From Eledone cirrhosa (taxonomy: Eukaryota): a stretch of DNA of 64,000 bases. This document shows positions 1,487 to 42,021 of the stretch, in pieces. A model generated the notes under the pieces. The model did no database searches. It was not told where the DNA came from and saw only the letters and a list, made by a program, of their open reading frames with translations. Position 1 is the stretch's first letter; every line of letters begins with the position of its first letter. The stretch lies in assembly GCA_964016885.1 (NCBI GenBank), contig OZ024742.1:235104001-235168000 (forward strand). The letters run 5' to 3'. The position numbers were made by a program, and so were the translations under genes.

Positions 1487-1687
1487 TACACACATACATA
1501 TATATATATATATACATACACACATATATACACATACATATATATATATATATGCAGAGGTTATATTTAATTTGTTGGGATTCAACAAGCTTAAAAATGT
1601 TTATAACTGATATAAAGCACTCAACAAATTAGTGGAGTAAATACACAATATATTAATAAATGGAAACTATATTTATAAAACCATATT

Positions 1688-1753
1688 TATTTTATTATAC
1701 ATATTTCAAGGGCCACCAAGGCAAATTATGGTGCGCTTTCATCAGATAATATA
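1688..1753 (-). ncRNA. Minimal type I hammerhead ribozyme (inverted pLTR copy)
   Basis: Minus strand reads tatattat-CTGATGA-aagcgcacca..tggtggccctt-GAAA-tatgta-TA-ataaaata. Confidence 0.75.
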
Positions 1754-2476
1754 GAGATTTGTTTTATAAATAAATATTGACATACCCGTAAAAAAAGATA
1801 ACCATAACGGTTGGAGCTTCCTGGATAGTGGAGATATTACATTTATTGAGGGTGATAGAAAATTATGATTGAGTATGCAAATGAGTGTCTGAAAGGTTGA
1901 AAAGATAACGGTTTATTTAAATTAAACTGTTGGAGGAAGGTGATATGTGAGGGAGAGAGAAAAAAAAGAAAAAAGAAAAAAAGAATAAAGAAATGAGAAA
2001 AAACAATAGGAGAGGAAAGAAAGAACGATTATATATATTTTGAGAGTGAAAATGGCGTGCATGAAGAGCAGAGCGTAAGTATATTTAAGTGAGGGAAGAG
2101 AATAGTTTCAAAGGATAAATACAGTGTAAGTATATTTACGTGAGGGAAGAAATGAAGAAAAGAATAAATGAGAATAGCGTGGAAGAATAATATTTATAAT
2201 GCAGGATTCATTTTGTTTTGATTATAATATTTATTTGATTATAATATTTATTTGATTATAATATTTATTTGATTATATATTATTTGATTAAAATATTTAT
2301 TGAAAAATTTAGATAAAAAATATAGATAAAAATTAAAATTTAATAATGTGTATGTTAAGGATTATAGATTATTTAAATAAATATATATTATTATTTTACA
2401 TTACAATGAGAATTTAAACTATGTTAACTTTAATTCCAATCACCCCAGATCCGTTAAAAACACTATTGTAAATTCT

Positions 2477-3337
2477 GTGCAGCAACGTATTTCTAGAATT
2501 TCAGCTAATAAAAATATATTTGAAGATAAGGCACAATATTATAACGAAGCGTTAGGTAGGGCAGGCTATAGTAATAAAATTAAATACATTGATAATAAGG
2601 GTGTGCCAATTAACCATAACTATAAATATTATAATAGAAAACCTTACACTAACTCGAAAACCAAAAGAAAAAATAGACCTAGAAATATATTATGGTTCGC
2701 TCCCCCTTTCTCATTAAGTATTAAAACTCCTATTGCTAAATTATTCTTTAAAGCTCTAGATAAGTGTTTTCCTAGAACACACAGGTATTACTCAATGTTT
2801 AATAGACATACTATTAAACTCTCATATTCCACCACTATGAATTTAGCGCAGAATATTAATAGAATTAATAATAGGAACTTAAAACCTAACCAGAATAGCA
2901 TTAAAACCCCTAGCAATATCCAATATAATGTTACTGCTCCCAATAATATAAATTTAGATAAATGTAATAGTAGAAATAAATCTAACTGTCTTCTAAATAA
3001 TAATTGTTTAGTTAAAAATATAGTATACAATTGTAATGTCAAAACAAATGTAAACTCCTTTAATTATGTAGGCTCTACCTCCATGGACTTCAAATCTCGT
3101 TTTAATAACCATAAATGTTCTTTTACGAATATAGGTAAAAAATCTTCAACTTCTCTATCTAACTTACTATGGGACTTGAAATCCAAGAACATTAACTATT
3201 CTTTATTTTGGAAAATTATTTCCAAAGCTCCTTCATACACTGCTTTATCCCAAAATTGTTCCCTTTGTGTCGAAGAAATATTCTTTATACTAAAAAGTAA
3301 GAACTCTATTAATTTGAGGAATAATTTATTCAGTTAA
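2477..3337 (+). pseudogene. PLE RT C-terminus + GIY-YIG endonuclease (truncated)
   Basis: Aligns by eye with the C-terminal part of the 709-aa ORF at 8753..10882 (YYNEAL, NRHTIKLSYSTT, CSLC). Confidence 0.9.
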
Positions 3338-4603
3338 ATGTAATATACGATTTATCTCTTTTACATATTGTCTTCTATATCTATATATGATTCATATACT
3401 TAATTTACTTTCTAATATCTCTACTTCACATATATATTATTACACCTATCGATAGATTATAAAATTCCTTTATATGACTGCTTGAAACTCCTTCAAGGAA
3501 AATTTTTTCTCGAAAAACTTATGGAAGAGTTTAAGAAAATCTTTTGAAAATTCCTTTGAAAGATATAGAAAAACCATTATTTTTATACCTTCCAATATTT
3601 TTATGTTTATATATATGTGGAAAAACATATGATTTTTTATATATATGTGGAGTAACCTATGATTTATGCTTTAAATATATTCGTAAGATAAATTTTTTAA
3701 ATGTTTTAACTTTATAGCAAGTAAATTTATGACTTCGTATAAAATAACATATGGTTCATGTTTTAATTATATTCTTAAGATAGAAAATTTAACTTCTTAA
3801 CTTTATAGCATTTAATCCTTAGAGACATCTGAGTTCTTAAACAATTCACTTTAAAAAATCACTTATAACTTCCTTTACGCTTCCTTACTGTTTTTATAAT
3901 ATAACTAAGTGGTTATTCTTTTGTAAACTCTCGAAAATTTTCCATAAATTTAGAATTATTTGGATGTTTAAAATCTTTGACTTACAACTTTTAATAAAAT
4001 AAACTATACTAGATTTGCTCTAATGTAAAATAATAATATATATTTATTTAAATAATCTATAATCTTTAACATACACATTATTAAATTTTAATTTTTATCT
4101 AAATCTTTCAACCTATCATTCTAAATATTATAATCAAAACAAAATGAATCCTGCATTATAAATATTATTCTTCCACACTATTCTCATTTATTCTTTTTTT
4201 CATTTCTTCCCTCACGTAAATATACTTACACTGTATTTATCCTTTGAAACTATTCTCTTCCCTCACTTAAATATACTTACGCTCTTCTCTTCATGCACAC
4301 TATTTTCACTCTCAAAATATATATAATCGTTCTTTCTTTCCTCTCCTATTTTTTTTTTCTCATTTCTTTATTCTTTTTTTCTTTTTTCTTTTTTTTTCTC
4401 TCTCCCTCACATATCACCTTCTTCCAACAGTTTAATTTAAATAAACCGTTATCTTTTCAACCTTTCGGACACTCATTTGCATACTCAATCATAATTTTCT
4501 ATCACCCTCAATAAATGTAATATCTCCACTATCCAGGAAGCTCCAACCGTTAAGGTTGTCTTTTTTTCCGGGTATGTCAATATTTATTTATGAAACAAAT
4601 CTC

Positions 4604-4669
4604 TATTTTATCTGATGAAAGTGCACCATAACTTGCCTTGGTGGCCCTTGAAATATGTATAATAAAATA
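4604..4669 (+). ncRNA. Minimal type I hammerhead ribozyme (3' pLTR copy)
   Basis: tattttat-CTGATGA-aagtgcacca..tggtggccctt-GAAA-tatgta-TA-ataaaata, with an 8-bp stem I and a self-complementary stem III. Confidence 0.8.
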
Positions 4670-4726
4670 AATATGGTTTTATAAATATAGTTTCCATTTA
4701 TTAATATATTGTGTATATATATATAT

Positions 4727-6061: not shown

Positions 6062-6118
<57 letters not shown>

Positions 6119-7705: not shown

Positions 7706-7776
<71 letters not shown>

Positions 7777-7783
7777 TAAAATA

Positions 7784-7859
7784 ACAGATTAAAGTTTAAG
7801 CAAAGAATCGCTGCTTTCACCCTTAACGGGATCTTCTGAAACTAACAAAGTCAATCTGT
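7784..7859 (-). ncRNA. Type I hammerhead-like ribozyme with variant core (CAGAAGA), 3' pLTR
   Basis: Minus strand reads acagattga-ctttgtt-agttt-CAGAAGA-t-ccc-gttaa-ggg-t-GAAA-gca..tgc-TT-aaact-ttaatctgt. All three stems pair. Confidence 0.7.
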
Positions 7860-8752
7860 AAACGCAGAACTGGATATTTCAAAAAACGTTGCAACCGGAG
7901 GAAGACAGGAAGACGATACTTTGGTTCGTGGTAACGTTCGCTGGCAAAGAACGGGAAAAAACGAATAATACGTCATTAATAGGAGCGGTGAAAAACAATT
8001 ATGCGCAAAGACAGAACCACGTTTATGGTATAAAAGAGGTCGTAGACTAATGTTCTCTTAGGTGGTGCATAGAGACGTTCTCTGGCAATGAACGAAAAAA
8101 CGAAGATAATAAGTCATATGTGGAGCGTGGAGAACAATAGCACGCAAAGACAAAACCACGTAAATGGTATAGCAGAAGTCGTAGACTAAAATTAATCTCC
8201 GCTACAGAGTTAAGAACAAAGTAAATAAATACAATACAGAAGTAATAGAAACAAATAAATACATACATGCAAACAGATACGTACATACACAAGCATACGC
8301 AAAACCTTACCATAGGTATACAAAACCACGCACATATAAATATGTGTGTGTGTGTATGCTTGTGTACAAATAAATAAATAATTATATCAATGTATATAAG
8401 TAAATAAATACGTATATAACAAGCACACACGCATACCTACATATAAATACACGAATGATCGGAGACGTAAGTCAACTAAAACAAGAAGTACACATATACA
8501 CACACCCACCATACGTACGAACCTGCATACTCACGCAGACGCGAAACTCCCGTATACACATAGCCAAACCCTAAATACCAGACTATGTAAAAATGATATG
8601 CCATAACAGTCAAATATACGTACGAGAAAGTATACATACCTTCACAAAACATACGGGTAATATATACTTACCTATGCAAATAAGTAAAGGAATAAACAAA
8701 ACATATACTTAGCTCCCACATTAAGACGTAAAATATCCACGTATAGGTCGTG

Positions 8753-10882
8753 CTATCCGTTAGGGTATAACGTGGGGCTGTAATACAGGAAAGTTTTGTG
8801 CAATTTATGTTTACAAGCCGAAATTGCCTCAGATTTTTTGTTTAAGATGTGGTCTGTGGCGTAGAGTATTTCCAGGGCCTCAGCGGCGCAGAGGTCACAT
8901 GGTCTTTTATTTCCGTTATACGATCTAGCCCTAGCTAGGATCTCCCAGTGTAACTTATATTGGGTGTGGTTATCTTTTAGACTCCAGATATAAGCTGAAA
9001 GTGACGTCATATTCCTTCTTAGAGGGTAGCGAAAAGAATGGGTATGCATGTAAAGACGCTGCTTGAAACTATTGGCGGTTAACCCTATGTAGGCCCTATG
9101 GGACGTGGGTGTTACAACCTTACATTTGTAGACAATGTTACTAGAGAGACATTTCCCGGATAGGGGGCAATCAGCCCGATTCCTACAATTACAGTTAGTA
9201 CTAACTACAGGGTTGCACGTGTTCCTACGGCTAGGTAGTTTAGCTAAATTTGAAGCTGTGATGTTATGTGCAAGGTTAGGAGTCGTAGAGTAAGAAATTT
9301 TAATAGTATTTCTATTAAAAATTTTACTATATTTATGTGTAGGGGGGAAATGCTTCGTAATAAGGGAAAGAAAGATCTTAGCTAATGGTGTAGCCACCTC
9401 CATATTATATGGTGGGTTAAACCAACAAATGCGACGGGATCTATTTCTTCTAGGTCTATTTTCGTACTCTGTATATGCTACCTTATCGACAAATCCACTT
9501 CGAGCAAGAGCTTCATTGTAATAAGTGGAATGGTCGTTGAAAATGCGCTCGTTGGTGGAAAGACGGGAAAGCCTCAACGAAACGTTTCTTACCAGGTTCT
9601 TGGTTATGCTGGCAGGATGGTTGGAATGCTTACTTATGTAATTAAGCGTATCATTCGGCTTTCTATACGGGTAATACAACCCATTCAATAAATTGAGGGT
9701 AACGTCGAGGTAATTAACGACCGAGAGATTGGCCTCAACCTGTATAGAGAGATTGAAGCCTTTAAAGAAGGCTGTGAGTTCTTTTCTGAACCTGTCGCAA
9801 GCACGAGGTCCGCACTTAGTCATGGTCAAAAGACCATCGTCACGGTACAAACCACCGCCCGCGTTGGGGAATTCGTCCTTGATAGAGAAAAGAAGGAAAA
9901 GGCCAATAAGATCAGTAACCTCCGCAGAGTCACTGGCGCCCATACTCACGTCGAATGGGGTACTATTGGATTTTTTAATCCAAATAGAGTCGTCGAAATT
10001 AATCACCGACTTTCGGGCATTAAGGATGACATCAACTTCAAAATCCTTAACCACTGTGAGTGTTTTAGCGAAATTGATAGCTCTAAGGAGAAGTGGTAGA
10101 GTGATGGAGGAGTAGTAATTGTTGATGTCGAATTGGATAAAACGGCAATGTTCCTTGTTACATATGCCGTTGAACCAATCAATCACCGCGAAAGAATTGT
10201 TCCACAGTGCGAGAGGGGCCAAACTTTTAATTTCAGGTATAATTCTATCAAGAATCGTTTTACTAAGTCTACCTAAATCGGACTTCGTAGGGTTAATAAG
10301 CCGAATAGAGGGGTTGTTCGGAAAATTGGATTTGTGATCCTTCAGGGTAAAGTGGGGAGAGATAGGGTCCAGAGGTTCGGTCCGGTCCAGGATGTTGAGA
10401 TCAGATGTGATTTTAAACCCAGCATCGTTGATTTCATTGATGACGCACCGATTAGTTTTACGGTAATCCTTAGTTACAGCATTATGTAGTAGTTGATGGT
10501 AAGTACTGCGCTCCACTTGATATAGGTTGCTAGTTTTGTTGGAATGGACGTGCACGGCGTTAGAATCCTTAATAGAACGAATTCTATTCTTCAGGTCTTG
10601 CTGGAAGGAATTGCTCCTATTCCGAAATTTGATATTCCGAATGAGTTCCAAGACATCATTTTCGAAGGGTGGCAATGCTGGGTTCCACGGAGGGTTATTA
10701 TAGGTTTTAAATCCAAATTTATCCTGTTTGTTGTCTGCTTTTCGCGGATTATCGAAATAAAAGGCACGCCAACGCAACCTTTTAATGAACGCGTCTGTTT
10801 TCTGTATCAGGAGTTTTAGGTATGTTTTCCTGCTTGGTACGGGCATGTTCTTTGTAGAAATATTCAGATGTTGTTTCTGCAT
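8753..10882 (-). CDS. PLE polyprotein: reverse transcriptase + C-terminal GIY-YIG endonuclease (709 aa)
   Basis: RT motifs FIQFDINNYYSSI, FDVSMGA, GLYRDDGL and VNYLDVTL; linker CNCRNRADCPLSGKC; EN IVYKC..AYIGLT..FKQR..CDLC..E..LNKKSE. No stop codons. Confidence 0.95.
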   Translation of the reverse strand: MQKQHLNISTKNMPVPSRKTYLKLLIQKTDAFIKRLRWRAFYFDNPRKADNKQDKFGFKTYNNPPWNPALPPFENDVLELIRNIKFRNRSNSFQQDLKNRIRSIKDSNAVHVHSNKTSNLYQVERSTYHQLLHNAVTKDYRKTNRCVINEINDAGFKITSDLNILDRTEPLDPISPHFTLKDHKSNFPNNPSIRLINPTKSDLGRLSKTILDRIIPEIKSLAPLALWNNSFAVIDWFNGICNKEHCRFIQFDINNYYSSITLPLLLRAINFAKTLTVVKDFEVDVILNARKSVINFDDSIWIKKSNSTPFDVSMGASDSAEVTDLIGLFLLFSIKDEFPNAGGGLYRDDGLLTMTKCGPRACDRFRKELTAFFKGFNLSIQVEANLSVVNYLDVTLNLLNGLYYPYRKPNDTLNYISKHSNHPASITKNLVRNVSLRLSRLSTNERIFNDHSTYYNEALARSGFVDKVAYTEYENRPRRNRSRRICWFNPPYNMEVATPLAKIFLSLITKHFPPTHKYSKIFNRNTIKISYSTTPNLAHNITASNLAKLPSRRNTCNPVVSTNCNCRNRADCPLSGKCLSSNIVYKCKVVTPTSHRAYIGLTANSFKQRLYMHTHSFRYPLRRNMTSLSAYIWSLKDNHTQYKLHWEILARARSYNGNKRPCDLCAAEALEILYATDHILNKKSEAISACKHKLHKTFLYYSPTLYPNG

Positions 10883-11026
10883 GATGAATATAAGTCAGTA
10901 GAGTGCTCAACCGAAGGAGCCAAATAGTAATAATAATAAAATTGAAGACTAAAATCCAAAGAGGGCTCGATAAGGAAAATATATATCAAATATATAAGAA
11001 CCGTAGAGCAAATATTTATTAAAATA

Positions 11027-11102
11027 ACAGATTAAAGTTTAAGCAAAGAATCGCTGCTTTCACCCTTAACGGGATCTTCTGAAACTAACAAAGTCAATCT
11101 GT
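11027..11102 (-). ncRNA. Type I hammerhead-like ribozyme with variant core (CAGAAGA), 5' pLTR
   Basis: Identical in sequence to 7784-7859 and offset by 3243 bp. Confidence 0.7.
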
Positions 11103-12334
11103 AAACGCAGAACTGGATATTTCAAAAAACGTTGCAACCGGAGGAAGACAGGAAGACGATACTTTGGTTCATGGTGACGTTCGCTGGCAAAGAACGGGAA
11201 AAAACGAATAATACGTCATTAATAGGAGCGGTGAAAAACAATTACGCGCAAAGACAGAACCACGTTTATGGTATAAAAGAGGTCGTAGACTAATGTTCTC
11301 TTAGGTGGTGCATAGAGACGTTCTCTGGCAATGAACGAAAAAACGAAGATAATAAGTCATATGTGGAGCGTGGCGTGTGTGTGTGTATATATTTATATGT
11401 ATGTATGTGTAAATGTGTGTATTGCTTACCACGTGTGTTTGTTTATTTATTTGTGTCCTTTCCTGTATCGCTCTCAACTTTATAATAATTTTTATTTTCT
11501 TATGTCGTATATTTTTTATTTTTATGTGACGGCCTATTGCATTATATGGTTGTTTATTGTTTTTTATTTTTTTATAATTAATTGTGTGTGTGTGCGTATG
11601 TATGCGTGTATATATGTGTGTATGTATGTGTGTGTATGTATGTGTGTGTATGTACGTGTGTATATATGTATGATTGTGTATATATATGTATGTCAGGTCA
11701 CCAGTTGGTGCTACTGGTAACCTGTATGCCAGTACAACCTGTCTCATGGTCGGGTCGTTGGCAACTAAACTGGCAACCCCACCAAGGTTTCTAGGGGAGG
11801 AGGGTGACTTTGGATATCCTGCAGGACTAAAAACAAAACCTGTCAAAGGGCAAAGGAGCTCTTAAGAGTCAATGGCCATCCAAAATCACCGGGAGAGATG
11901 ACCCCTTAGCCTTTGTCAAGGCAGAATTCTAGGAGAAGGAAAACTCTGATATAACACCTGCAACCCTGATGGTATCCAATGATGTTGACTTCTTTTTGGT
12001 AAATATCATCTTGGTTAAGAGAGTGGGACTGGCTTTGTGCAGTGCCTTTGCTCACTATAAAAGCTTCACGGCACAGGCATTGCTTTATATCTGGAGATCT
12101 CTCTGCATTTGTCGTCACATGGTACCATGGGCCCAGTACTATGTGTCAATAATTGTCGCAAGTGTAGTGTTTGTACCAGAGTTTTCAAGTCGCTGGCTGG
12201 ACTTAAAAGTCACACTCGTTCAGCCCATCGGTAGGGGTTCTCCTACTTGGATATAAAGTAGTGGCCGTACTCGAAAACGAGTTGGCAGCCACCATATATG
12301 TATGATTATGTGTGTATATATATATATATGTATA

Positions 12335-12390
<56 letters not shown>

Positions 12391-12400
12391 AACAAGTAAG

Positions 12401-12494
12401 ACCCCGACGGCTGAGCTCAAGCCGTTTCGACGGCTAATTCTGTACTGAATGAAAATTTATTCTGGTATTTAAATAGCCGAACTTATCAAGGGGT
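12401..12494 (-). ncRNA. Type I hammerhead ribozyme, U3-A8 variant (inverted pLTR copy)
   Basis: Reverse complement of 14953-15046. Confidence 0.8.
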
Positions 12495-12690
12495 AATTCC
12501 ATATATGGTCAAAGAGATAATCACCAGGATTGGTCACATCACAAGTTAGTAGTAAATCTGTGATGGCAAGTTGGTGGGGGAAGGGGTAGCTAAACCTGCC
12601 GGTAGGAGAAAAAGGGAGAGGGGGTGGAGTAGACCCATTCATGCGTTGGTAGTGCCAGCTACAGCTGGGTGTGAGGTCAAAGAGGATACA

Positions 12691-13747
12691 ATTAATCAGC
12701 TTCTTCCGCGACTGGGGATTTAAAATAACCCTACAAACGTCCCTGACCCGAGTTAATTTCCTGGACGTTACCCTCGATCTCAATAATGACCTGTACTACC
12801 CATACAGGAAACCCAATGACAACCTGCACTACATCCACCGCCGATCTAACCATCCTAGGAACATCACCAACAACCTGGTCAAAAACATCTCCCTCCGTGT
12901 ATCCCGTTTGTCAGCTAATGAGAAGATATTCGATGAACATGCGCCTTACTACAACCAGGCCCTCAAGCGGAGTGGTTTCTGGGAGGAAATATCCTACTGT
13001 CCAGCTCCCATTAGCGGAACCAGCAGGCGACACCGCCGCTCACGCAATGTAACATGGTTCAATCCTCCCCACAACGCCGAGGTGACAACTCCCATCGGGA
13101 AAATTTTCTTTAGGCTCATTGAAAAACACTTCCCACCACAACACCGCTACCACAACATAATTAACAAAAATACCATCAAACTCTCTTACAGCACTACACC
13201 TAACTTCGCACAAAACATCGTCTCCTCCAACAACAAAAAACTCAACCCCGATGGAAGAAACAACCTAAATAGCAGTGGAGAGCCGACCAGGAGGTGCAAC
13301 TGTCCTGATAGACCCAGTTGCCCCCTCGACAACAGATGCAGAGACCGTAATGTGATCTACCAGTGCACCGTGAGCACGGACACCTCCAACAAAGCTTATA
13401 TAGGATTAACCTCATGCGACTTCAAGACCCGGCTATACCAACACAGACATACCTTCCGAAACCCGGCCCGGCGTCACGCCACTACACTTTCGGGCCACAT
13501 ATGGGACCTCAAGGACAACAACATCAACTATGATCTCACTTGGAAATTACTGTCCAGAGCCAACTCTTACACGGGAGGACACCGTCCGTGCAATTTATGC
13601 TCGGAGGAAACATTACAAATGCTGTTTTCGACGGACCAACTCCTAAAAAAGAAAGATGAACTGGTTACTGCATGTAAACACCGATTACGTAGGACTTACC
13701 TCGCCCTCAAACTCCATAATGACCCGGGGGGTAGACTAGGGCTATAA
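12691..13747 (+). pseudogene. PLE RT C-terminus + GIY-YIG, open reading frame but 5'-truncated
   Basis: Collinear with residues ~370-709 of the ORF at 8753..10882. Confidence 0.9.
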
Positions 13748-14522
13748 CACCCCACTTGCCTATTTTGTAATGGGTAACCCCTGCTTGCCTATGGAGACGT
13801 AAGATCTTCTTTTACTTTCTTTTATCGCTTCCTCTATATTTCCCCCTTCCCCCATCCCTCCCTAGTCCTTCTACCCCAGTTCTCTTTCTTTGTCGTCGTC
13901 TTTTTCTCGCCCACCCGAGGTAGCCCATCGGTCCCTTGTAGCTTCAGCACCCCCACCCCATCCCCTATTCTATGATAGATTTGGCTGACTCCGCTTTTTA
14001 TAGCAGAGGTGTTAGACTTCGGATACCCGCCCCTTTCTCCGACCGTTGTCCCTTTTTCCCGTGCCTTCTATATTTCTTAGTGGCATCTTTGCTTAAATTT
14101 CTCGTTTATCCAGTATCTCTTTTTTCTTTTTCCCCTTTTTTTTTTTTGGGGGGGGGGGGGGGTGTTCCTGTATTAATTTTCCGTTCTTTACTTTTACTTC
14201 GTACGATCTTTCATGTAGCTTGTATAAGACTTTTTGTTTCGTGGCGGTACCTTTAGAGTTAGCACTAGTATTTTTTTGCGGGACCCTGAATTATATTCTC
14301 GTACTAGTTTACTTTCTTGCACTGGGTGGTTGCTGGCCCTGTGTTTGGGGTAGAAACCTTTATTATTTTCGTGGTAGTCTCTTTAGTATTCTGCCCCCCC
14401 CCCCCCCCCTTTGTTGACCCGTCACCGTACGATACACGCACTTATACCTCGTATAAGGGTCCCTTTATTTCCGTCCCACCTAGTTTATTTCTATTATTAT
14501 TATTTATTTTTTTATTCTACAT

Positions 14523-14553
<31 letters not shown>

Positions 14554-14952
14554 TTTTTTATTTATTTATCTATTCTTTTATTCACTTATTTGTTTTATTT
14601 ATTTATGTATTTCTTTAGCCTAGCAATAGCGAGAGACTTAAGTCTTAGTAACCAGATTTTGCTTTTTTTTTTTTTTTTTTTCTCTCTTAGTACCTTTTAT
14701 AGTTTTACCTTTCATTGTTCTACTTACCGTTTCGACCTCCTCCCCCTCCCCCTCCCCTGTATCCTCTTTGACCTCACACCCACCTGTAGCTGGCACTACC
14801 AACGCATGAATGGGTCTACTCCACCCCTCTCCCTTTTTCTCCTACCGGCAGGTTTAGCTACCCCTTCCCCCACCAACTTGCCATCACAGATTTACTACTA
14901 ACTTGTGATGTGACCAATCCTGGTGATTATCTCTTTGACCATATATGGAATT

Positions 14953-15046
14953 ACCCCTTGATAAGTTCGGCTATTTAAATACCAGAATAAATTTTCATTC
15001 AGTACAGAATTAGCCGTCGAAACGGCTTGAGCTCAGCCGTCGGGGT
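14953..15046 (+). ncRNA. Type I hammerhead ribozyme, U3-A8 variant
   Basis: acccc-TTGATAA-g.ttcggcta...tagccg.t.c-GAAA-cggct-tgagctc-agccg-TC-ggggt. It has a GUC cleavage triplet (cut after 15041) and a G-C stem II closure. Confidence 0.82.
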
Positions 15047-15162
15047 CTTACTTATTCCTATTACCCACTCTACTACCCTAAGTATTGAGTACTTTGGTGC
15101 GTTATGGTCCACCTGGTTCCTTACCACATTTCCTTCGTTATATATATATATATATATATATA

Positions 15163-16359
15163 TGTAGGAAGTGAGTTTTGTAAAGCAATGCAAATATCGG
15201 ATAAGTAGCACTCTACAGTTTGTAGGACTGGAGTATAAATAATATAAGATCAAAAGATGGTTAAAAGAGTTCCAAGTATTTTATTATACGCATTTCAAAA
15301 ACAAATATCATCATGAGATGATATCTGCGTTTTCATCAGATAAAATAGGGATACATGCTATGAAAGTTAAAAAACACTTGTGAATAGTGAAGTTTTAAAT
15401 AAACATATGAAAAATAATTTAAGATTGATGTATGATATTGGGAAAAAGTGAGAGAGGGTTGGAAAGGCTAAGGAAGAGGAGGAGATGAGAGTAAAGAATG
15501 GTGGGGGAGGAGTATAAGAAGGAAGGATGAGAGAGGAGGAGAGATGGGTGATAGAGAGAGAGAGATAGCCTTTACAACTGAGAAAAAATATATATTGTCT
15601 CACAGAGAGAAGTTAAAAAGCCGTTGGAAGATAATAGATAATTTTAAAGAATTTGAAATTAAAAGTTGATGAAGAGAAAAAGGGGTTAAGAATAATAATA
15701 AATTAAGGTTTGCATATTGAAGGATTTAATATGTGCGAGGAAAAGAAATTGTTAATATGTATTATTAAAATAAAAATATTAATGTTATTAAGGATATAAT
15801 GTGAAAAGAAGTAGAAGAGTGGATGAGTTATGAATTTAGAGGAATTAGTTAGTGTTTAAGTTTGTTTTTATGTAATGTAATATGTGTGCGTAATATATGT
15901 AAATAGTTTGTTTTAAAATGGGCGCAGAAAGCAAAGAAGAAAAGAATGTTTAAGGAAGAAAATATCTAACATCAAAATATATATGTTTACGAAATATTTT
16001 CTAATGGTAATAATATAATATATTAAAGGAAATTAGTTAGGGTTTAAGTTTGTTTTTATGTATTGTAATATGTAATATGTAAAAGTCAAACGAGCATGAA
16101 AGGAAGAGATAAGGAACTTAAGGAAGAAAAATCTAACGTCAAAAAATGTTTATGTTTACGAAGGACTATTAAAGGTAATACTATAATGTATTTAAAAGAT
16201 AATAATAATTTTTATGACCAATGATATGAAGAAAGATGGAAGAGTGGATATGTTGTGGTGAGTAATAATAAGAATTGAGAAGTAGTTAGGAAGAAAAGGT
16301 ACAGATTAGAGGTTAGAAATTAAAAAGAAAAAGAAAAAAGAAAAGAGGAAGAAAGGAAA
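15163..16359 (-). mobile_element. PLE 3' UTR/pLTR + tail remnant, tail-to-tail with the preceding element
   Basis: Carries a hammerhead and the bulged hairpin. The UTR is purine-rich on the + strand like 1760-2400, and it ends in (TA)n at 15139-15162. Confidence 0.7.
15277..15347 (-). ncRNA. Minimal type I hammerhead ribozyme with long stem II
   Basis: Minus strand reads tattttat-CTGATGA-aaacgcagatatcatc-tcat-gatgatatttgttttt-GAAA-tgcgta-TA-ataaaata. Confidence 0.85.
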
Positions 16360-17208: not shown

Positions 17209-20200
17209 CATCATCATTTTACGTCCGCTTTTCCCTGCTTGCAAGGGTTGGACGGGTCCTATTCAGCACAGCATCTCCCCACTTGTCAAGGTCCTTCGTC
17301 ATCTCCTCCGTGAGTTTCAGCGATCTGAGGTCTGCTCTCACCACCTCCACCCATGTTTTTCGTTGTCTACCTCTACTGTGTCTTCCCTCCACTGGGACTT
17401 CCTGGCACTTCTTCACCCAGCGGCCATCCTCCATGCGCATCACATGTCCATACCATCTCAGCCTTCTCTCCTGCACACCACAACTTATCCCTCTTATACC
17501 CAGTTTCTTTCTCAACTCATCTATGCCTGGTCGTTCAAGCACATTGACATCCAACGAAGCATACTTGCTACATTTCTCTCCAGCCGTCGCATATCTTCTG
17601 CAGTTGCTGCCCATGTCTCACTACCATGCAGCATCGCGCATCTCACACAGGCATCATATAACCGTCCTTTCGTACGCAGGGAGAAACCCTTCTTTGTCAA
17701 CAGAGGAAGCAGCTCCCTAAACTTCTTCCAACCCGTCCTTATTCTAGATACTATGGCCTCGGAACACCCCCCTCTCCTCCCATGCTAATCTGATCACCTA
17801 GGTACCGGAAGCTATCAACCACTTCTATAGAACCCACCTGCATTGGAAAAATGAGTCTATCACAGCAATTACTACTGCCAACTTTCCCTGTACATCTACT
17901 GCATATGTAGTTTTCCCTACCTGTTAGTTTGCCAATACATTTCTTGTGTACCCAAGATCTGCATTGTATACATTTTATGGAATTTATGCCAGTTCCTTTC
18001 CAATATATCGAACATGGCCATTTCCCTGACGGAATCAGAGTTTTGTCCTCTTTTCTACTCATCAACGCTTTTGTCTTAGCTAGGTTCACTCTCAGTCCTC
18101 TTGCTTCCAACTGCTGTTTCCATAGCCAGAATTTATTCTCTAGCTCCTCTACTGATTCTGCTATAAGAACCAGATCGTCAGCATAGAGAAGTTCCCATGG
18201 ACAGCCAGTCTTAAACTCTTCTGTTATGGCTTGGAGGACTATAATGAACAAGAGCGGGCTGAGGACCGAACCTTGATGTACTCCTACTTGTATCTGGAAT
18301 TCCTCACTAAACTCCATTCCTACCCTGACTTTACTGACAGTACCTCTGTACAAAGTTTGCACTGTCCTCACAAGCCATTCCTCAACACCTAATTTCCTTA
18401 GGGACCACCAGATGACAGATCGGGGTACCCTATCAAAGGCCTTCTCTAGGTCAACAAAGGCTAAGTATAGTGGCTTATTTTTTCTCTAAGAACCTCTCTT
18501 GCAATTGTCTCACCAAGAAGAGGGCATCTGTTGTACTCTTCCCAGGCACAAAACCAAACTGCATCTCATCTAGTTTGACCCTTTCTCTAATTAGTTGTGC
18601 TAATATCCTTTCTGCCACTTTCATAACCTGATCCATCAGTTTTATACCCCTATAACTGCTCCTCTCCAGAACATCCCCTTTACCTTTGTAGCAATTTATG
18701 AGAATACTGCTGCACCAGTCTTTGGGTATGACACCACCATATATAGCCTGATTGATGATGCGTGCAACCAGTTTAGTACCTACGTCCCCTGATGCCTTCA
18801 GCATCTCAGCAACTATTCCCGATGGTCCATCAGCCTTATCATTTTTCATTTCCTTAATCGCCTCTTGGACCCTATATTCGTCAATCTCAATAGCTGGTCC
18901 CTCTGTCGGATCTACTAAGGGTAATTTCTCTCTCTCCCAGTCGTTCTCCACATTCATCAGTCTCTCATAATGACATTTCCAGGCCTCCTTTTTCTGATCA
19001 TTCGTGACACTAAGTACACCGGCATCATCTCGGACACATTTATCTCCAACAACATCCTGATTTGCATTGACACACTGCCTTGCAATGTGGAACACCGCAC
19101 GCCTCTGATCTTCCCGTCGCAGAACATTGGCAAACCTCCTACTCTCCGCCTCCCTGCGTGCTAAGTACACCTGACGTCTAGAGTCTCTCTTAGTGGCTGT
19201 ATATTCTTCCCTACTCCCACCCTTTTTGCAAGCTTTCCATGCCAGTCTTTTGTCTCTAATGGCCTTATCTACTGTGCTGTTCCACCACCAGGTCACTCTC
19301 TGTCTGGTTGGAACTCTGCTCCAGCCACAAGTTTCACCAGTAGCCTGCAGCAAGTTGTCACGTAAGAAATTCCAGTTATTATCTATGTCATACGTCTCTA
19401 AATCGTCTTCTTTTTCGTCATATACATCTTGAAGGGCTTTCCTAAATTTGTATTTTAGTGAAAGGTCTTTTAGCTTCAGACCTTTCTTCTCAACACCTTC
19501 CTGTATGTCTCATTCAATCTCTTGCTTACTGATATATCACTAACGACTAACCTATGCTGTGGGGTACATTCTTTCCCAAGGTATGCCTTGGTATTAGACA
19601 CTATCTGCCTGTCCCGCTGCCTAACTAGTAAGAAGTCAATCTGGCTTATGTGCTTACCAGATTTGTAGGCTATTAGGTGATTGGCAGGTTTCTGGAAGTT
19701 TGTGTTGCAAATAGTCAATGTACCTGCATCACAAAATTCAAGAAGTCTCACTCCTTCTTCATTTCTTGAGCCGTAACCGTGCCCACCATGTACCCCAGTG
19801 TAACCATCCTGGAGCTGTCCAATATGACCATTGAAGTCTCCTGCTAGCATAACGATGTCTCCGTCCTCTGTCATTGCGGTTGTTTGTAAAAGTTGCTCGT
19901 AAAAGCAGTCTTTCTCATCTTTGCCTAGGCCTGCTTGGGGAGCATAGGCAGAGATGATTGTCAGTAGTCTCCTGCCTAGAACTAATCTAAGCTTAATTAT
20001 TCGATTACTAACTCGAACTACCTCTATTGTCTTATTGATCCATTTCTCAGCCAGGAAAATGCCTACTCCCCCTAACCCATCATCCTTACCTACCCAGAAT
20101 AGCTAAGACGTTTGCCTACGACTAGTCTCGCAGAGGCACCTCTCCATCTCACCCTTGCACGCAGCACACATCCACATGCCTTCTCTCCAGCATCTCCGCT

Positions 20201-20870: not shown

Positions 20871-21126
20871 TTGAAATCTGGTCGCATCCACTGAGATATA
20901 CATATACACATATATATATGTATATACACATACATACATCAAAAGAGTTAGCAGTATGTCAACAGTCAACAGGTCAGCCACCTTAGATAGAGTAATGAGT
21001 TATGTGATGATGGTGGGGAGCGAGTGTAGACGTTATTGTTATTATGGTGGCGGGGGGTAATTGAGATGTACAAGTTCATAGTTCACTTGTCTCTTTTCCT
21101 CTCTCTTCAAAATTTATATATATATA

Positions 21127-22926
<1,800 letters not shown>

Positions 22927-26544: not shown

Positions 26545-28954
26545 TGTGATATGATTTTGTTTTATAGCATCACTTTTGTCTCTTTGATTCTTATTCGTTG
26601 TATTCGTTCTGTTCTTGTTTGTTGTATTGTTGACCCATACTAATTTCTTCTCTTATTGACTCTTTCTATATTATTCTTAGATTAAATAAAAACCTTTGAT
26701 TTACAGTCTGAGTTCAAATTCCGCCGAGGTTAACTTTGCCTTTCATCCTTACGGGGTCGATAAAATAAAGTACCAGTAATGTACTGGGTAATTGTTGGCC
26801 TTGTGCCAAAAGTAGAAACAATTATTATAGGAGGAGACACAGTCAAAGAACATAACCATAACCTAAAGCAATTCATGAATGCAGCTAACAATGCAGGTAT
26901 GCAATTGAATCAAGACAAATGCAGCTTTAATCAAAATAGAATACATTTCCTTGGACTTGTCATAGAAAAAAGGTAAATTAAGACCGGACCCTGAAAGGTA
27001 TAAAGCCCTTATTGACATGCCGTCCCCAAAGACGTTAAAAGCGTTGAACCGGGTAATCGGTCTTTTTGCATACTATGCTAAATGGATTAAGGGCTCTTCT
27101 AACCTCTCAGTCGTTCTTACAAAGGCAAGAAACACCATTGATAAACAAGGTCCATCAAATGAAGAAAAATCTACTATTAATAAGATGAAGGAAGAACTCA
27201 TAAAGGCATCACTGTTTTCCCTTGATTTCACTACACCATTTATAATCGAAACCGACGCATCAAATAATGCCATTGGTGGAACTCTATCACAAAATGGTCG
27301 TCCAATTGCTTTTCTTAGTAGAACCCTAAATAAGTCAGAAAGAGGACATTCCATCATCGAAAAGGAAGCTTGCGCAATTATAGAATATTGAATAAAATAG
27401 AGGCATATGATCAGCGCTGTTCCACATTGTAATATAATAACAGACCAATGATCGGTTGCATTTGCGTTCAACAAAAAACACACTTCCAAGATTAAAAACA
27501 AGAAGGTAGCCCGCTGGTGACTGGAGCTAAGCAATCTTAACCTTACCTTCTCATATAGACCTGGTTCATTAAACCAAGCCACAGACGCTCTATCGCGCTG
27601 CTGCTCTACTAAGACGGAACACGAATTATACAATATTCACTCACGTCTATGTCATCCGGGGGTCACCAGACTTCTACATTATTGTAAATCAATGAACTTG
27701 GCATATTCTATTAATGAAATAAGAGAAGTTATCGCCAATTGCAAAATATGCCGTGAATGTAAACCACAATTCTATAAACCACCCAAAGGAAGATTAATAC
27801 ATGCCACAAGACCCTGGGAAAGACTATCAATGGACTTTGTGGGTCTCATGGCTATCTCAAACGGTTTTCGATTTATATTAACTATAGTTGACGAGTACTC
27901 ACATTTTCCATTCGCCATTCCCTGTAAAGAGATAACAACCGACGTAGTAATTAAACATCTATTGGAGATATTCTCTATATTTGGAAAACCCAGTTTAATT
28001 CATACAGATAGGGGACGTCAATTTGAATCACAAAAACTCAAAGATTTCTTATAAAAAGCCACACCACGCCATATCGACCCCAAGCCAACGGCCAATGCGA
28101 AAGAGTTAACGGCACAATATGCAAAGCGATAAGTCTGGCATTGCAGACAAATAATCTCAATAAAAATGGAGTAACATGATTCTAATCGCTCTGTCGTCTA
28201 TCCGAGGATTGCTTTGCACTGCTACAAACGCCACGCCACATGAAAGAGTATTTTCATTCACCAGATCAACAAACAACGGCACAGAAATACCAGAGTTGCT
28301 AAATAAACCGGGAACAATCGTGCTACATTGACGTCACATAAGGAATAAAGGTGATGATCTCACGGAAAACGTTCAACTCATCGAGACGATCTCACCTCAC
28401 TTTGCCAAGGTACAATTTAATAGTGGAAGAATAGACACAGTCTCAACTACAAATCTCGCACCAGCAGCATCACCACAAAACAATGGAAATTCAACAACAT
28501 CGGAGTGTCAGAATAACAACTCCCCAAAAGGCGCCAATTTAACTCAACCAACAGTAATATCTACACCTGTGGCAGTTGGGAACGAAAGTATGACATCTAC
28601 CGCCGATGACAATCCTACAGAGAGTGCGGAATTTAACGACGATGAATCTTCTGACACATTCTTAACCTTGAATAACACACCCCAACAACAAAGAACATGC
28701 CGAGAACACTTAGTAGTGAGGCCAATGCGATACAACGATTAACACTAGAGGGAAAGAATGTGATATGATTTGTTTTATAGCATCACTTTCTTCTCTTTGA
28801 TTTGATTCCTTTTTATTCTTATTCGTTGTATTCGTTCTGTTCTTGTTTGTTGTATTGTTGTATTGTTGACCCATACTAATTTCTTCTCTTATTGACTCTT
28901 TCTATATTATTCTTAGATTGAATAAAAACCTTTGATTTGGTACAAAATAATACA
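26545..28954 (+). mobile_element. Gypsy/Ty3 LTR retrotransposon, internally deleted
   Basis: LTRs at 26545-26702 (truncated) and 28759-28954 (TG...CA), PPT agagggaaagaa and a 5-bp TSD ACAAC (26540-44 / 28955-59). Pol order is RT end, RNase H (ETDASN, IEKEA), integrase (H..CHPG, C..C, SMDFVG, HTDRG). Confidence 0.93.
26703..26829 (+). mobile_element. tRNA-SINE 3' part (Meta-domain-like core); full-length copies at 30005-30190 (-) and 62056-62249 (+)
   Basis: Shared core gagttcaaat..actttgcctttcatccttacggggtcgataaaataaagtacca and tail gtgccaaaagtagaaa(c/t)aattatt occur in three dispersed copies. Confidence 0.8.
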
Positions 28955-31256: not shown

Positions 31257-31259
<3 letters not shown>

Positions 31260-31680
31260 AATCAGGAAAGAAGAGTGACACGGTTTGCTATACAAAAAAG
31301 GTTTCTAATCTCATTGCTGACAATTGTTTCTCTGAACTGGTAGGTCTAGAGATCTCTACCCGCCTGTTTTCGCGTCATTCGATCACCAATACATAGTTGT
31401 AACCAGTCAATAGCGATCTCTAGACCTACCAGTTCAGAGAAACAATTGTCAGCAATGAGATTAGAAACCTTTTTTGTATAGCAAACCGTGTCACTCTTCT
31501 TTCCTGATTTATCATTTCTCCAAGTGTTAACAACATAGAAATCACCGCGTACACGCAGCATCACTATGGAAACGCCTTGTTGAGTGAAACTTAGCCAAGC
31601 GTTGATATCATCCACTACTCGGAGTACCCTAACTGGACTACACCTAAGTGGACTACCTATAACAATAATCTGTTATTCCG
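31257..31680 (+). mobile_element. Miniature fold-back PLE-like insertion (98-bp perfect inverted repeat + ~170-nt tail)
   Basis: 31257-31354 is the reverse complement of 31415-31512. It contains GAAA-caattg-TC (a hammerhead 3' half) and ttgttgagtg, and has (TA)n flanks. Confidence 0.65.
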
Positions 31681-31881
31681 TATATATATGTATATTTAAT
31701 AGTATGGGCTGGAGGCTTCACTAGATGTATGTTTTAGCCTGTCCTCATGAAGAGATGTATGGGATGGTGCATACGATATATATGCTTCAGCCTGTTCCCA
31801 TGGGAGGGCGAGTCTTGTGGACATTAAATGGTGATGATGATGATGATGTATATATGTATGTATATATATATATATATATAA

Positions 31882-33329: not shown

Positions 33330-38887
<5,558 letters not shown>

Positions 38888-40740
38888 CATCATCATCATC
38901 ATCATCATCATCAACGTTTAACGTCCGTGTTCCACGCTTGCATGGGTTTGGACGGGGGTAGTCCCACTTGAGGCAAGAGTGATTGTCTTGCTCGCATAGG
39001 ACTGTCTGGCAGGTTTTCTACAGTTGGATGCCCTTCCTAACACCAACCACATTTACAGTGTGGGTCTGGGAGGTTTTTACCGTGTTGCCTACACGGCCAC
39101 ATTACAGCGTGGACTGTGTGTTTTTTTGTCGTGACACCTACACGATCTCATTTGTTTCGGCCTCGATGGCGCGGCACCAACATAACTTTACATAGAACGG
39201 GGTGGTGTGGATCGGGTGGGGGTGGGGGTGGTGGGACGGGGTGTATTTTGTTAGAGATGCCTACTGGCTGGAGTAGGTTTTACTATATATTTAGGTAAGG
39301 CGGGTCTTCTCTGTTACTGAGTACCGCCAAAGGTCTCGGTCCAGTGACATTGTCTTGGAGAGGTGTAAGTGTGTGATGTCGGAGTTTATCAGCTCGTCCC
39401 AGGTTTTTCTAGGTCTGCCTATTCCGTGACTACCGTCTATCTTTATTGCCCTGCACTTTGTTATACAGCTATCGACTTTCATGCGCATCACGTGTCCATA
39501 CCAACGTAGCCTTCTCTCGAGTAAACAACATCTGATCCCTCTTATCTCTAATTTTTTCCTTAGTTCGTTTATGCTTTGCCGTTCACGTATATTACTGTTA
39601 CACATCCAGCGGAGCATGCAAGCTTCGTTCCTCTCTAGTCTGCGTATATCCTCTGCACACAATGCCCAGGTCTCACTGCCATGCAGCATTGCTGTTCGTA
39701 TGCAGGCATCGTACAACCTGCCTTTCATTTTTAGTGAGAACCCTTTAGCAGCTAATAGTGGTATAAGCTCTCTGAACTTTTTCCAACCAGTTCTGACTCT
39801 AGCTACAGTACTTTCAGAGCACCCTCCCCCACTGCTGATTTTATCGCCCAGGTAACGGAAGCTGTCCACTATTTCTATAGAACCCTCTGCGCAATTGAAG
39901 GAGCTAGTAGTTTGTGGGCACTTGCTGCTACTTATTGCACCAGAGCACCGGCCACATGTAAAATCTATGTTCTTAGTTAGCTTACCTGTGATCCCACTAC
40001 ATCTTTTATGCACCCATACTTTGCATTTAGGACATAAAATGGAGTTTCTACCTACGCCTTTCCTACACACCGAGCACGACCATTTCCCAGAAGGGACCGC
40101 CGCCTTGTTTTCTTTCCTACAAACTAGTACTTTGGTCTTAGCCAGGTTAATTTTAAGTCCTTTTGACTCTAGGCCGTGCTTCCATGTTTGGAATTTCTTC
40201 TCTAGCTCGGCCATTGATTCCGCTATGAGTGTCAGGTCGTCTGCGTATAGGAGTTCCCATGGGCAGCCTGTCTTGAACTCCTCTGTTATAGCCTGAAGGG
40301 CAATAATAAATAGTAGTGGACTGAGAACAGAGCCCTGATGGACGCCAACTTTTACGCTAAACTCTTCACTATATTCGTTGTTAATTCTAACCTTGCTGAC
40401 TGTTTCTTTATACATGGCTTGTATAGCCCTCACAAGCCATTCGTCAACGCCTAGTTTTCTAAGAGCCCACCAGATAATGGAGCGGGGGACTCTGTCGAAG
40501 GCTTTCTCCAAGTCGACAAAAGCTAAGTAGAGGGGTTTACCTTTAGCTAGGTACTTCTCCTGTAGTTGTCGTACTATGAAAAGAGCGTCTGTGGTACTTT
40601 TGCCTGACACAAACCCGAACTGCATTTCATCTAGGTCAATTCTCTCTCTGATTAGTTGCGCTATTACTCTTTCCGTGACCTTCATGACCTGGTCGATTAA
40701 TTTAATGCCTCTATAGTTACTCCTATCTAGGGCGTCTCCT
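38888..40740 (-). mobile_element. Young 5'-truncated RTE LINE; RT frame 39291-40740 uninterrupted
   Basis: [37 protein letters not shown] and FRYLG, with a 3' UTR and (ATG)n tail. Confidence 0.95.

Positions 40741-42021
<1,281 letters not shown>

Follow-up and report, generated by a model that had tools for sequence, protein, structure and literature searches.

The Hydra clade of Penelope-like retrotransposons (PLEs), in the accessible text of Craig et al. 2021 (PMC8557442), consists of C-terminal EN+ elements with a single ORF of ~700 aa, (TA)n targets, a hammerhead in the pLTR, and tandem and inverted structures. For PAc, a Poseidon element of Anolis, the accessible text of Frangieh et al. 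2024 (PMC11167929) describes two internal starts of reverse transcription that bound the tail, with both target strands cut and extended. The PAc targets are AT-rich, RNA 3′ of the start is required, a dimer is predicted, and in vitro the start site did not differ between the strands. The Penelope of Adineta vaga has an inverted pLTR and an optional tail, as far as the accessible part of Arkhipova et al. 2013 (PMC3846280) describes it, and tails and hairpins go unmentioned in the accessible part of Li et al. 2026 (bioRxiv). How the inverted ends and the one-sided tail of PLEs originate has been an open question, and the only in vitro system gave no RNA signal.

Penelope-like elements of the window

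The window analysed here, a stretch of 64,000 nucleotides, sits in a (TA)n-rich animal genome of 3.0 Gb (Eledone cirrhosa). Six PLE families were labelled: A (the ends at 15140 and 21320), B (1553), C (15163), D (31680), E (41080) and F, the family of the intact ORF at 8753-10882 on the minus strand. This ORF encodes a 709-aa protein of the Hydra clade with RT and GIY-YIG domains. Its YxDD and VY..YIG motifs are kept in 106 homologs, and 483 homologs were found at E ≤ 1e-20. A predicted model of the protein (pLDDT 93.5) had the telomerase RT (TERT) as its best fold match; a fold made from the single sequence was unusable (pLDDT 33.6), a Pfam scan of three pieces of the ORF returned no family, and a profile search against solved structures brought nothing useful. 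The family F copy ends, at its 3′ pLTR (7771-8125, minus strand), at the shorter of the two ends described below, in (TA)n. The pLTR of this family has an internal duplication of 139 nt (7934-8189 and 11021-11365).

As judged by diagnostic motifs, the elements are Hydra-clade Penelope-like retrotransposons. An N-terminal RW[KR] motif is present in five of the six families (RWI in C), and DKG is replaced by DKT in families A to E and by NKT in the window copy of F. The CxCX5C linker, as well as the CxxC and CxH around conserved E and N, are present in F and nearly invariant in the 106 homologs, and the GIY-YIG core has no conserved cysteine pair (no CCHH). Insertion into (TA)n, a trait of the clade, was found as well. 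The tandem unit of family A is ~3.7 kb, owing to a long 3′ UTR, versus the <3 kb that the accessible text of Craig et al. 2021 (PMC8557442) gives as a general trait of the clade and not as a criterion. A Naiad or Chlamys identity was ruled out by domain order, the GIY-YIG domain being C-terminal and not N-terminal.

Other elements in the window include decayed LINE fragments on the minus strand, with AP endonuclease and RT (352-1149, 17751-20102, 39291-40730 and 34672-35450), which by their motifs we take to be RTE-like and CR1/L2-like, and a fragment at 27521-28054 that is, presumably and again by motifs, the integrase-like part of an LTR retrotransposon.

Two ends in the non-coding leader

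An earlier note on this DNA, made from its letters, had proposed that the 3′ extensions of five families (A to E) resemble ORF starts and stop within ~7 nt of a Ser/Cys codon of the ORF N-terminus. The five ends that it named all exist, run into (TA)n and translate as it gave them. They are also sharp: of the 30 best family A loci, a set biased by a query that included the tail, 29 stop at the same base and one reads through. The position of the ends relative to the ORF was, however, not as proposed. Copies that read through the long end place the cognate ATG downstream of it by 93 nt in A (L031), 50 nt in B (L225, L266), 85 nt in C (L140/L269), 51 nt in D (L265, L272) and 54 nt in E (L186/L268); the family A start was positioned with the read-through copy and 30 further loci retrieved by its downstream sequence. 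Since the conserved Ser is residue 9 in all six family N-termini, simple arithmetic puts it 74-117 nt beyond the ends. The family A peptide starts 128 nt before the true ATG, is out of frame and meets a stop one codon past the end point. When checked on their cognate families, the tails matched the 5′ leader and not the ORF start, so that they are leader sequence and the peptides are chance translations (for B to E this rests on the ATG positions). A codon-defined end, suggested by short peptide look-alikes in one frame, is therefore refuted by five ATGs that all lie 50-93 nt downstream of the ends, and we give it practically no credence.

Nor is there one end per family: every family also has a second, shorter end 80-171 nt upstream, which the earlier note had missed. 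We call the short, upstream end site 1, the long end site 2 and the spacer between them the tail, and number each site by how far the first T of its TA run lies from the cognate ATG. Junctions in the window and in loci L001-L273 were mapped against natural read-through references. Away from the locus centres this yielded 179 matches (a second C reference was excluded as redundant), comprising 131 TA junctions, 6 read-through copies and 42 unclassified matches. All but two of these untargeted TA junctions (129/131) lie ≤9 nt from one of two sites in the six families, and most of the unclassified matches fall at the same two sites, with TA runs that are short or imperfect. Sites 1 and 2 are at -173/-93 in A, -143/-50 in B, about -175/-85 in C, -222/-51 in D, -167/-54 in E and -132/-44 in F, giving tails of 80-171 nt. 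At the junction 1-5 nt are identical to (TA)n (11 sites scored), with only 1 nt at site 2 of C.

Both ends are in common use. The site-1 anchor of family A has 18,074 matches genome-wide, and among the first 30 copies taken in order of position site 1 was used by 18 and site 2 by 12, two of which have internal deletions. The long ends of B and D have 2,559 and 243 matches genome-wide. For family F, the depth of contigs from four public runs steps up at 10920 and 11010, and their TA loose ends lie at 10924 and 11012; these contigs, whose kind is unspecified, agree with two ends and give no copy count. Each family thus has two fixed ends in a non-coding leader, upstream of the ATG.

In the window, family A site 1 lies at 15059-15061 (plus strand; 173 nt before the cognate ATG), where 3 nt are identical to (TA)n. 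It opens an 80-nt tail of non-coding 5′ leader that runs to site 2 (15059-15138). The (TA)n target at 15139-15163 is common to this site-2 end, 93 nt before the cognate ATG, and to a family C 3′ end on the minus strand (15164-15340). The C end comprises a hammerhead-like motif (15285-15340), site 1 near 15243, hairpin 1 at 15210-15234 and a tail to site 2; this copy is without ~11 nt present in most C copies. Almost nothing but a tail makes up the family E stub (41080-41200, minus strand), which begins a few bases before site 1 and has hairpin 1 at 41146-41186. Family E looks young, 13 of its 24 matches being identical over 99 nt. The full layout is seen in the 5′ leader of the intact family F copy (10905-11014, minus strand), in the order site 1 (11014-11012), hairpin 1 (11009-10965), site 2 (10926-10924), hairpin 2 (10920-10905) and ATG (10882).

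A bulged hairpin downstream of each end

The hairpin consists of a CTC/GAG stem, a 2-nt bulge on the 3′ side whose first letter is T, and an upper stem. Its core starts 6-10 nt 3′ of the junction at 12 of 12 sites in the six families (hairpin 1 of D was placed from the window copy, and that of E by eye). It was first seen in A, C, E and F, and site 2 of B and D, inspected afterwards, fitted. In family A, hairpin 1 (15067-15090, plus strand) has a 4-bp lower stem, the 2-nt bulge and a 4-bp upper stem. The 45-95 nt between hairpin and end that the earlier note gave are only the gap separating hairpin 1 from site 2. What stays at a constant distance from an end is the hairpin downstream of it, which that arm lacks. 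The strict motif is expected by chance at ~1.7e-4 per nt (resampled units), and both E hairpins and the window hairpin 1 of D lack the outer pair that it demands.

Counting pairs position by position in 18 short hairpins showed the first core pair and the first upper pair in all 18, both above shuffles; 17 keep the outer pair (shuffle mean 14.5, p 0.002) and 14 the second upper pair (shuffle mean 8.2, p 0.003). Pairs swap between G-C and A-T and between C-G and T-A, and other bulge registers pair rarely (1 of 18 with a 0-nt, 2 with a 1-nt and 5 with a 3-nt bulge). This covariation is supportive and its p values are optimistic, because the hairpins were selected on their core and first upper pairs and share a common descent. 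The predicted fold of the leader contains both family A hairpins; the 235-nt leader as a whole folds no more stably than shuffles (z -1.14), and folding energy did not favour the sense over the antisense strand. An Rfam scan of positions 1-32000 of the window found no family over the hairpins, its sole match there, MIR4208, being a fold-back artefact far below threshold.

Outside families A to F, a blind search for fold-backs between TA runs returned 38 tailed rows, of which 9 have the strict hairpin at ≤12 nt; three of these 9 are diverged copies of B or D. Among 11 hand-picked rows 10 have a hairpin under a relaxed rule, one of them at 20 nt, and one has none under that rule. Nine metagenome loci from other organisms were inspected as well: five have two hairpins before the ATG, three have one clear or relaxed copy, and one has none that is convincing. 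Loci L275 and L276 carry 3′ ends of their own, both stopping 9 nt before hairpin 1.

The search also returned other structures. Fold-backs in (TA)n with one-sided tails of 31-45 nt and no CTC/GAG hairpin (L055, L097, L138, L167, L172, L198, L273) are probably from other PLE clades with a different signal. Recurrent tail-less symmetric fold-backs between TA runs (L059, L083, L112, L136, L159, L169, L202) could be the ends of TA-targeting DNA transposons or other elements. Some of the 46 rows with zero tail are artefacts caused by TA-like runs within hammerhead stems.

Judging from these sequences, the element protein probably binds the two leader hairpins of a single RNA, and the two nicked strands of (TA)n would each start a cDNA immediately 5′ of one of them. 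The earlier note had suggested that reverse transcription begins at a fixed internal point of a read-through RNA, positioned by the bulged hairpin and primed by nicked (TA)n, and this much we infer too; the geometry is the reverse of that suggested, and there are two paired sites in place of one. The likeness to template definition by telomerase, drawn at the same time, holds loosely, there being no sign here of repeated copying of a short template.

The hairpin could instead act at the DNA level, being recognised in single-stranded cDNA or as a DNA motif, with the GIY-YIG nuclease cutting just 5′ of it and so making one or both ends. Most ends do lie on TA-like letters, the preferred target of the nuclease, and folding is symmetric between strands. 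The accessible text of Craig et al. (PMC8557442) ascribes the tail to nuclease resolution of an intermediate, and a Penelope nuclease needed tail DNA to cleave (cited in the accessible text of PMC11167929). Loops of 4 to ~60 nt with a constant bulge, however, fit a folded single strand and not a duplex site, and the two genomic ends of PAc match the starts of reverse transcription on RNA in vitro (PMC11167929, accessible text). Resolution of DNA alone would also leave the different sites on the two arms, described below, unexplained. We regard it as unlikely.

The template itself can be followed in family A. Of 203 5′ ends, 118 lie between -240 and -221, with 38 more at the edge of the reference. 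The cluster is 25-29 nt below a TATA-like box and within the loop of a hammerhead-like stem II. In the window the TATA-like box is at 14972 and an initiator-like site at 15001 (plus strand), where the 5′ ends of A arms cluster. This is the spacing of a promoter from TATA box to start, and on that basis the cluster likely marks the transcript start. Most A stubs start inside the stem II loop and so carry half a ribozyme. If transcripts from the pLTR promoter are primed in the leader, stubs of ~60 and ~140 nt would result, and such stubs are the common form. The 5′ ends of B cluster at -332 to -325 and those of C at a 6-nt palindrome that lies 257 nt upstream of the long end; these are possible transcript starts or annealing points.

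Hammerhead core-like motifs were found by pattern in A, B and C. The putative family A motif, read by eye (14954-15045, plus strand), is of type I with a long stem II and a variant core in which a U3-A8 pair replaces C3-G8; Rfam had no hammerhead match in window positions 1-32000. The presence of such motifs bears on another reading, in which the hairpin is a signal for RNA processing or termination, transcripts end at the two sites, and they are copied from their 3′ ends as in target-primed reverse transcription. Sharp ends would follow, PLE transcripts bear self-cleaving hammerheads nearby, and RNA-seq read ends of PAc fell at the sites (PMC11167929, accessible text). But the hammerhead-like cut sites are upstream of site 1 and at neither end, PAc favours internal starts over template 3′ ends (same source), and two RNA species would not explain the near-absence of pairs of like ends reported below. 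The processing reading seems to us very unlikely.

Pairing of the arms and comparison with known systems

The family A end at 15138 (site 2) closes a 2.75-kb insertion that has a site-1 arm at its left end (12389). The inverted arm (12389-12690, minus strand; inner junction approximate) meets a forward arm (12690-15138, plus strand) that comprises the C-terminal part of the ORF (to 13747), the 3′ UTR, the pLTR and the tail. A family A stub at 21126-21320 has the same arrangement, with a site-1 arm on the minus strand, a site-2 arm on the plus strand and hairpin 1 at 21247-21270. The same holds for a family D stub at 31257-31681 (site-1 arm minus, site-2 arm plus), which has a long-loop hairpin 1 (31517-31585) and a tail of 171 nt. 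The family B insertion at 1553-4715 is likewise head-to-head: its site-2 arm (minus strand) ends at 1553 and has hairpin 1 at 1619-1638 and a hammerhead-like motif at 1696-1746, and its site-1 arm (plus strand) holds an ORF remnant (2381-3337).

Among head-to-head pairs without a TA run between the arms (pairs with such a run are left out of the count, and most loci had been picked by a site-2 query), 128 of 129 join a site-1 to a site-2 end; one is 2+2 and none is 1+1. Pairs that were not targeted gave the same result (25/25 mixed). So did the first 100 of the 18,074 family A matches in order of position, where all 21 pairs are mixed as judged by the next letter (0.5^21 = 5e-7); the clean pairs at these loci are all mixed (19/19), and one of the two pairs with TA inside is 2+2. 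The pairs do not descend from one amplified unit, since they have 122 distinct junction geometries. Many ends have no partner inside the 1.5-kb flanks.

Two further observations concern the junctions. A GIY-YIG fragment from another PLE family is flanked, at 6114 and 7428, by two outward-facing stubs of an A-like subfamily; both end at site 1, their 5′ ends are identical, and they are possibly a split 1+1 pair. A long A/T run at the head-to-head junction of an A stub (L289/L290) suggests untemplated addition before joining.

A mixed pair might also arise from a single priming followed by fold-back or self-priming, possibly on an antisense template, with the second arm a copy of the first cDNA that halts at hairpin 1. 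Self-priming has been proposed for head-to-head junctions (Arkhipova et al. 2013, accessible part of PMC3846280), and in 61 of 108 tight pairs the 5′ ends of both arms are ≤15 nt apart, some of them on short palindromes. Similar 5′ ends would, however, also result from two cDNAs that run off the same transcript start. Of the 108 tight pairs, 19 have a site-2 arm too short to reach site 1, and another 14 have a site-1 arm that extends >15 nt further 5′. The site-1 arm in these 33 pairs holds sequence that is absent from the site-2 arm and could not have been copied from it, so that fold-back on one cDNA is excluded there. The extents of the arms argue against fold-back and for two primings, and we hold fold-back to be highly unlikely as the general route.

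Two primings on one RNA could proceed as follows. The PLE protein would dock at the two leader hairpins and nick both (TA)n strands, and each nicked 3′ end would start a cDNA just 5′ of one hairpin, which the RT would read as RNA. As the cDNA runs toward the RNA 5′ end, the hairpin that positions an arm should not be copied in that arm, and the site-2 cDNA would carry the tail and hairpin 1. Head-to-head joining of the two cDNAs by end joining would give an inverted arm and a one-sided tail. An ordinary transcript from the pLTR promoter, primed in its leader, would yield short stubs only; for a full-length copy the template would have to be a tandem read-through transcript that includes a downstream leader. 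The two sites would be coupled most simply by a protein dimer. The broader proposal, that Hydra-clade PLEs use a programmed form of twin priming, in which a dimer on two tandem RNA hairpins assigns one nicked strand to each and one RNA builds both ends, we consider about evenly balanced between right and wrong.

If twin priming is true, the inverted arm and the one-sided tail of PLEs follow directly, and it would explain the many thousands of short stubs in the genome, of which the family A matches alone number 18,074. A hairpin of 16-25 nt would then be a portable address that sets the start of reverse transcription at a chosen internal point of any RNA. This bears on template definition by telomerase-related RTs, and possibly on tools for RNA-templated insertion. 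The duplicated minimal hairpin and the near-absolute rule of one of each open the question to experiments that mutate, move or swap the hairpins, and an intact ORF is present in the window.

Related strategies are found among other retroelements. In L1 twin priming both target strands prime one RNA, giving an inverted structure, and the starts are at the poly(A) end and a variable internal site; here, in contrast, each of the two sites is internal and has a fixed, marked place, and overlap between the arms is frequent. Small structured RNAs bound by the RT define the place of copying in hepadnaviruses (epsilon), in LINEs (3′ stem-loops) and in telomerase (the template boundary). The signal described here differs: it lies 3′ of the start and occurs twice, protein priming is not involved, and nothing points to a short template being copied repeatedly.

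The Hydra clade in the accessible text of PMC8557442 has the same protein motifs, ORF, targets, tandem copies and inverted arms, and a tail that is often at one end only; its tails are of 30-40 nt, versus 80-171 nt here. The words hairpin and stem-loop are absent from the main text of that paper (Craig et al. 2021), and in the Hydra consensus sequences of its accessible part we found the hairpin by eye. Hydra-1_Ajap has two copies of it ahead of the ATG, Hydra-2_Amil and Hydra-2_Ajap each have one in their 3′ part, Hydra-1_Crog has variants, and in Hydra-1_Obim and Hydra-1_Amil it is degenerate or doubtful. The hairpin-bearing consensus sequences come from a sea cucumber, a coral and a copepod.

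Head-to-head inverted arms with a tail on one arm only are shared with the Penelope of A. vaga, whose pLTR and tail, in the accessible part of PMC3846280, include the first 12-22 codons and for which self-priming on an antisense template is proposed; the tail here is non-coding. PAc, in the accessible text of PMC11167929, has in common with the families here two fixed ends that bound the tail. PAc starts inside its ORF (+111 to +118), at an AC-rich stem-loop and with no homology to the target, whereas the ends here lie within the 5′ leader, 44-222 nt before the ATG, on TA-like letters and ahead of a duplicated hairpin. The same text describes for PAc no duplicated signal and no coupling of strand to site. 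Its printed template has, by eye and as a lead only, a CUC/GAG stem 9 nt after +118, without the 2-nt bulge, and none at the upstream AC-rich stretch. In the openly accessible literature we found no description of the twin hairpin or of the 1+2 pairing rule. Two-site internal initiation and the one-sided tail were known already; the twin hairpin as a cis-signal and the pairing rule are apparently unpublished.
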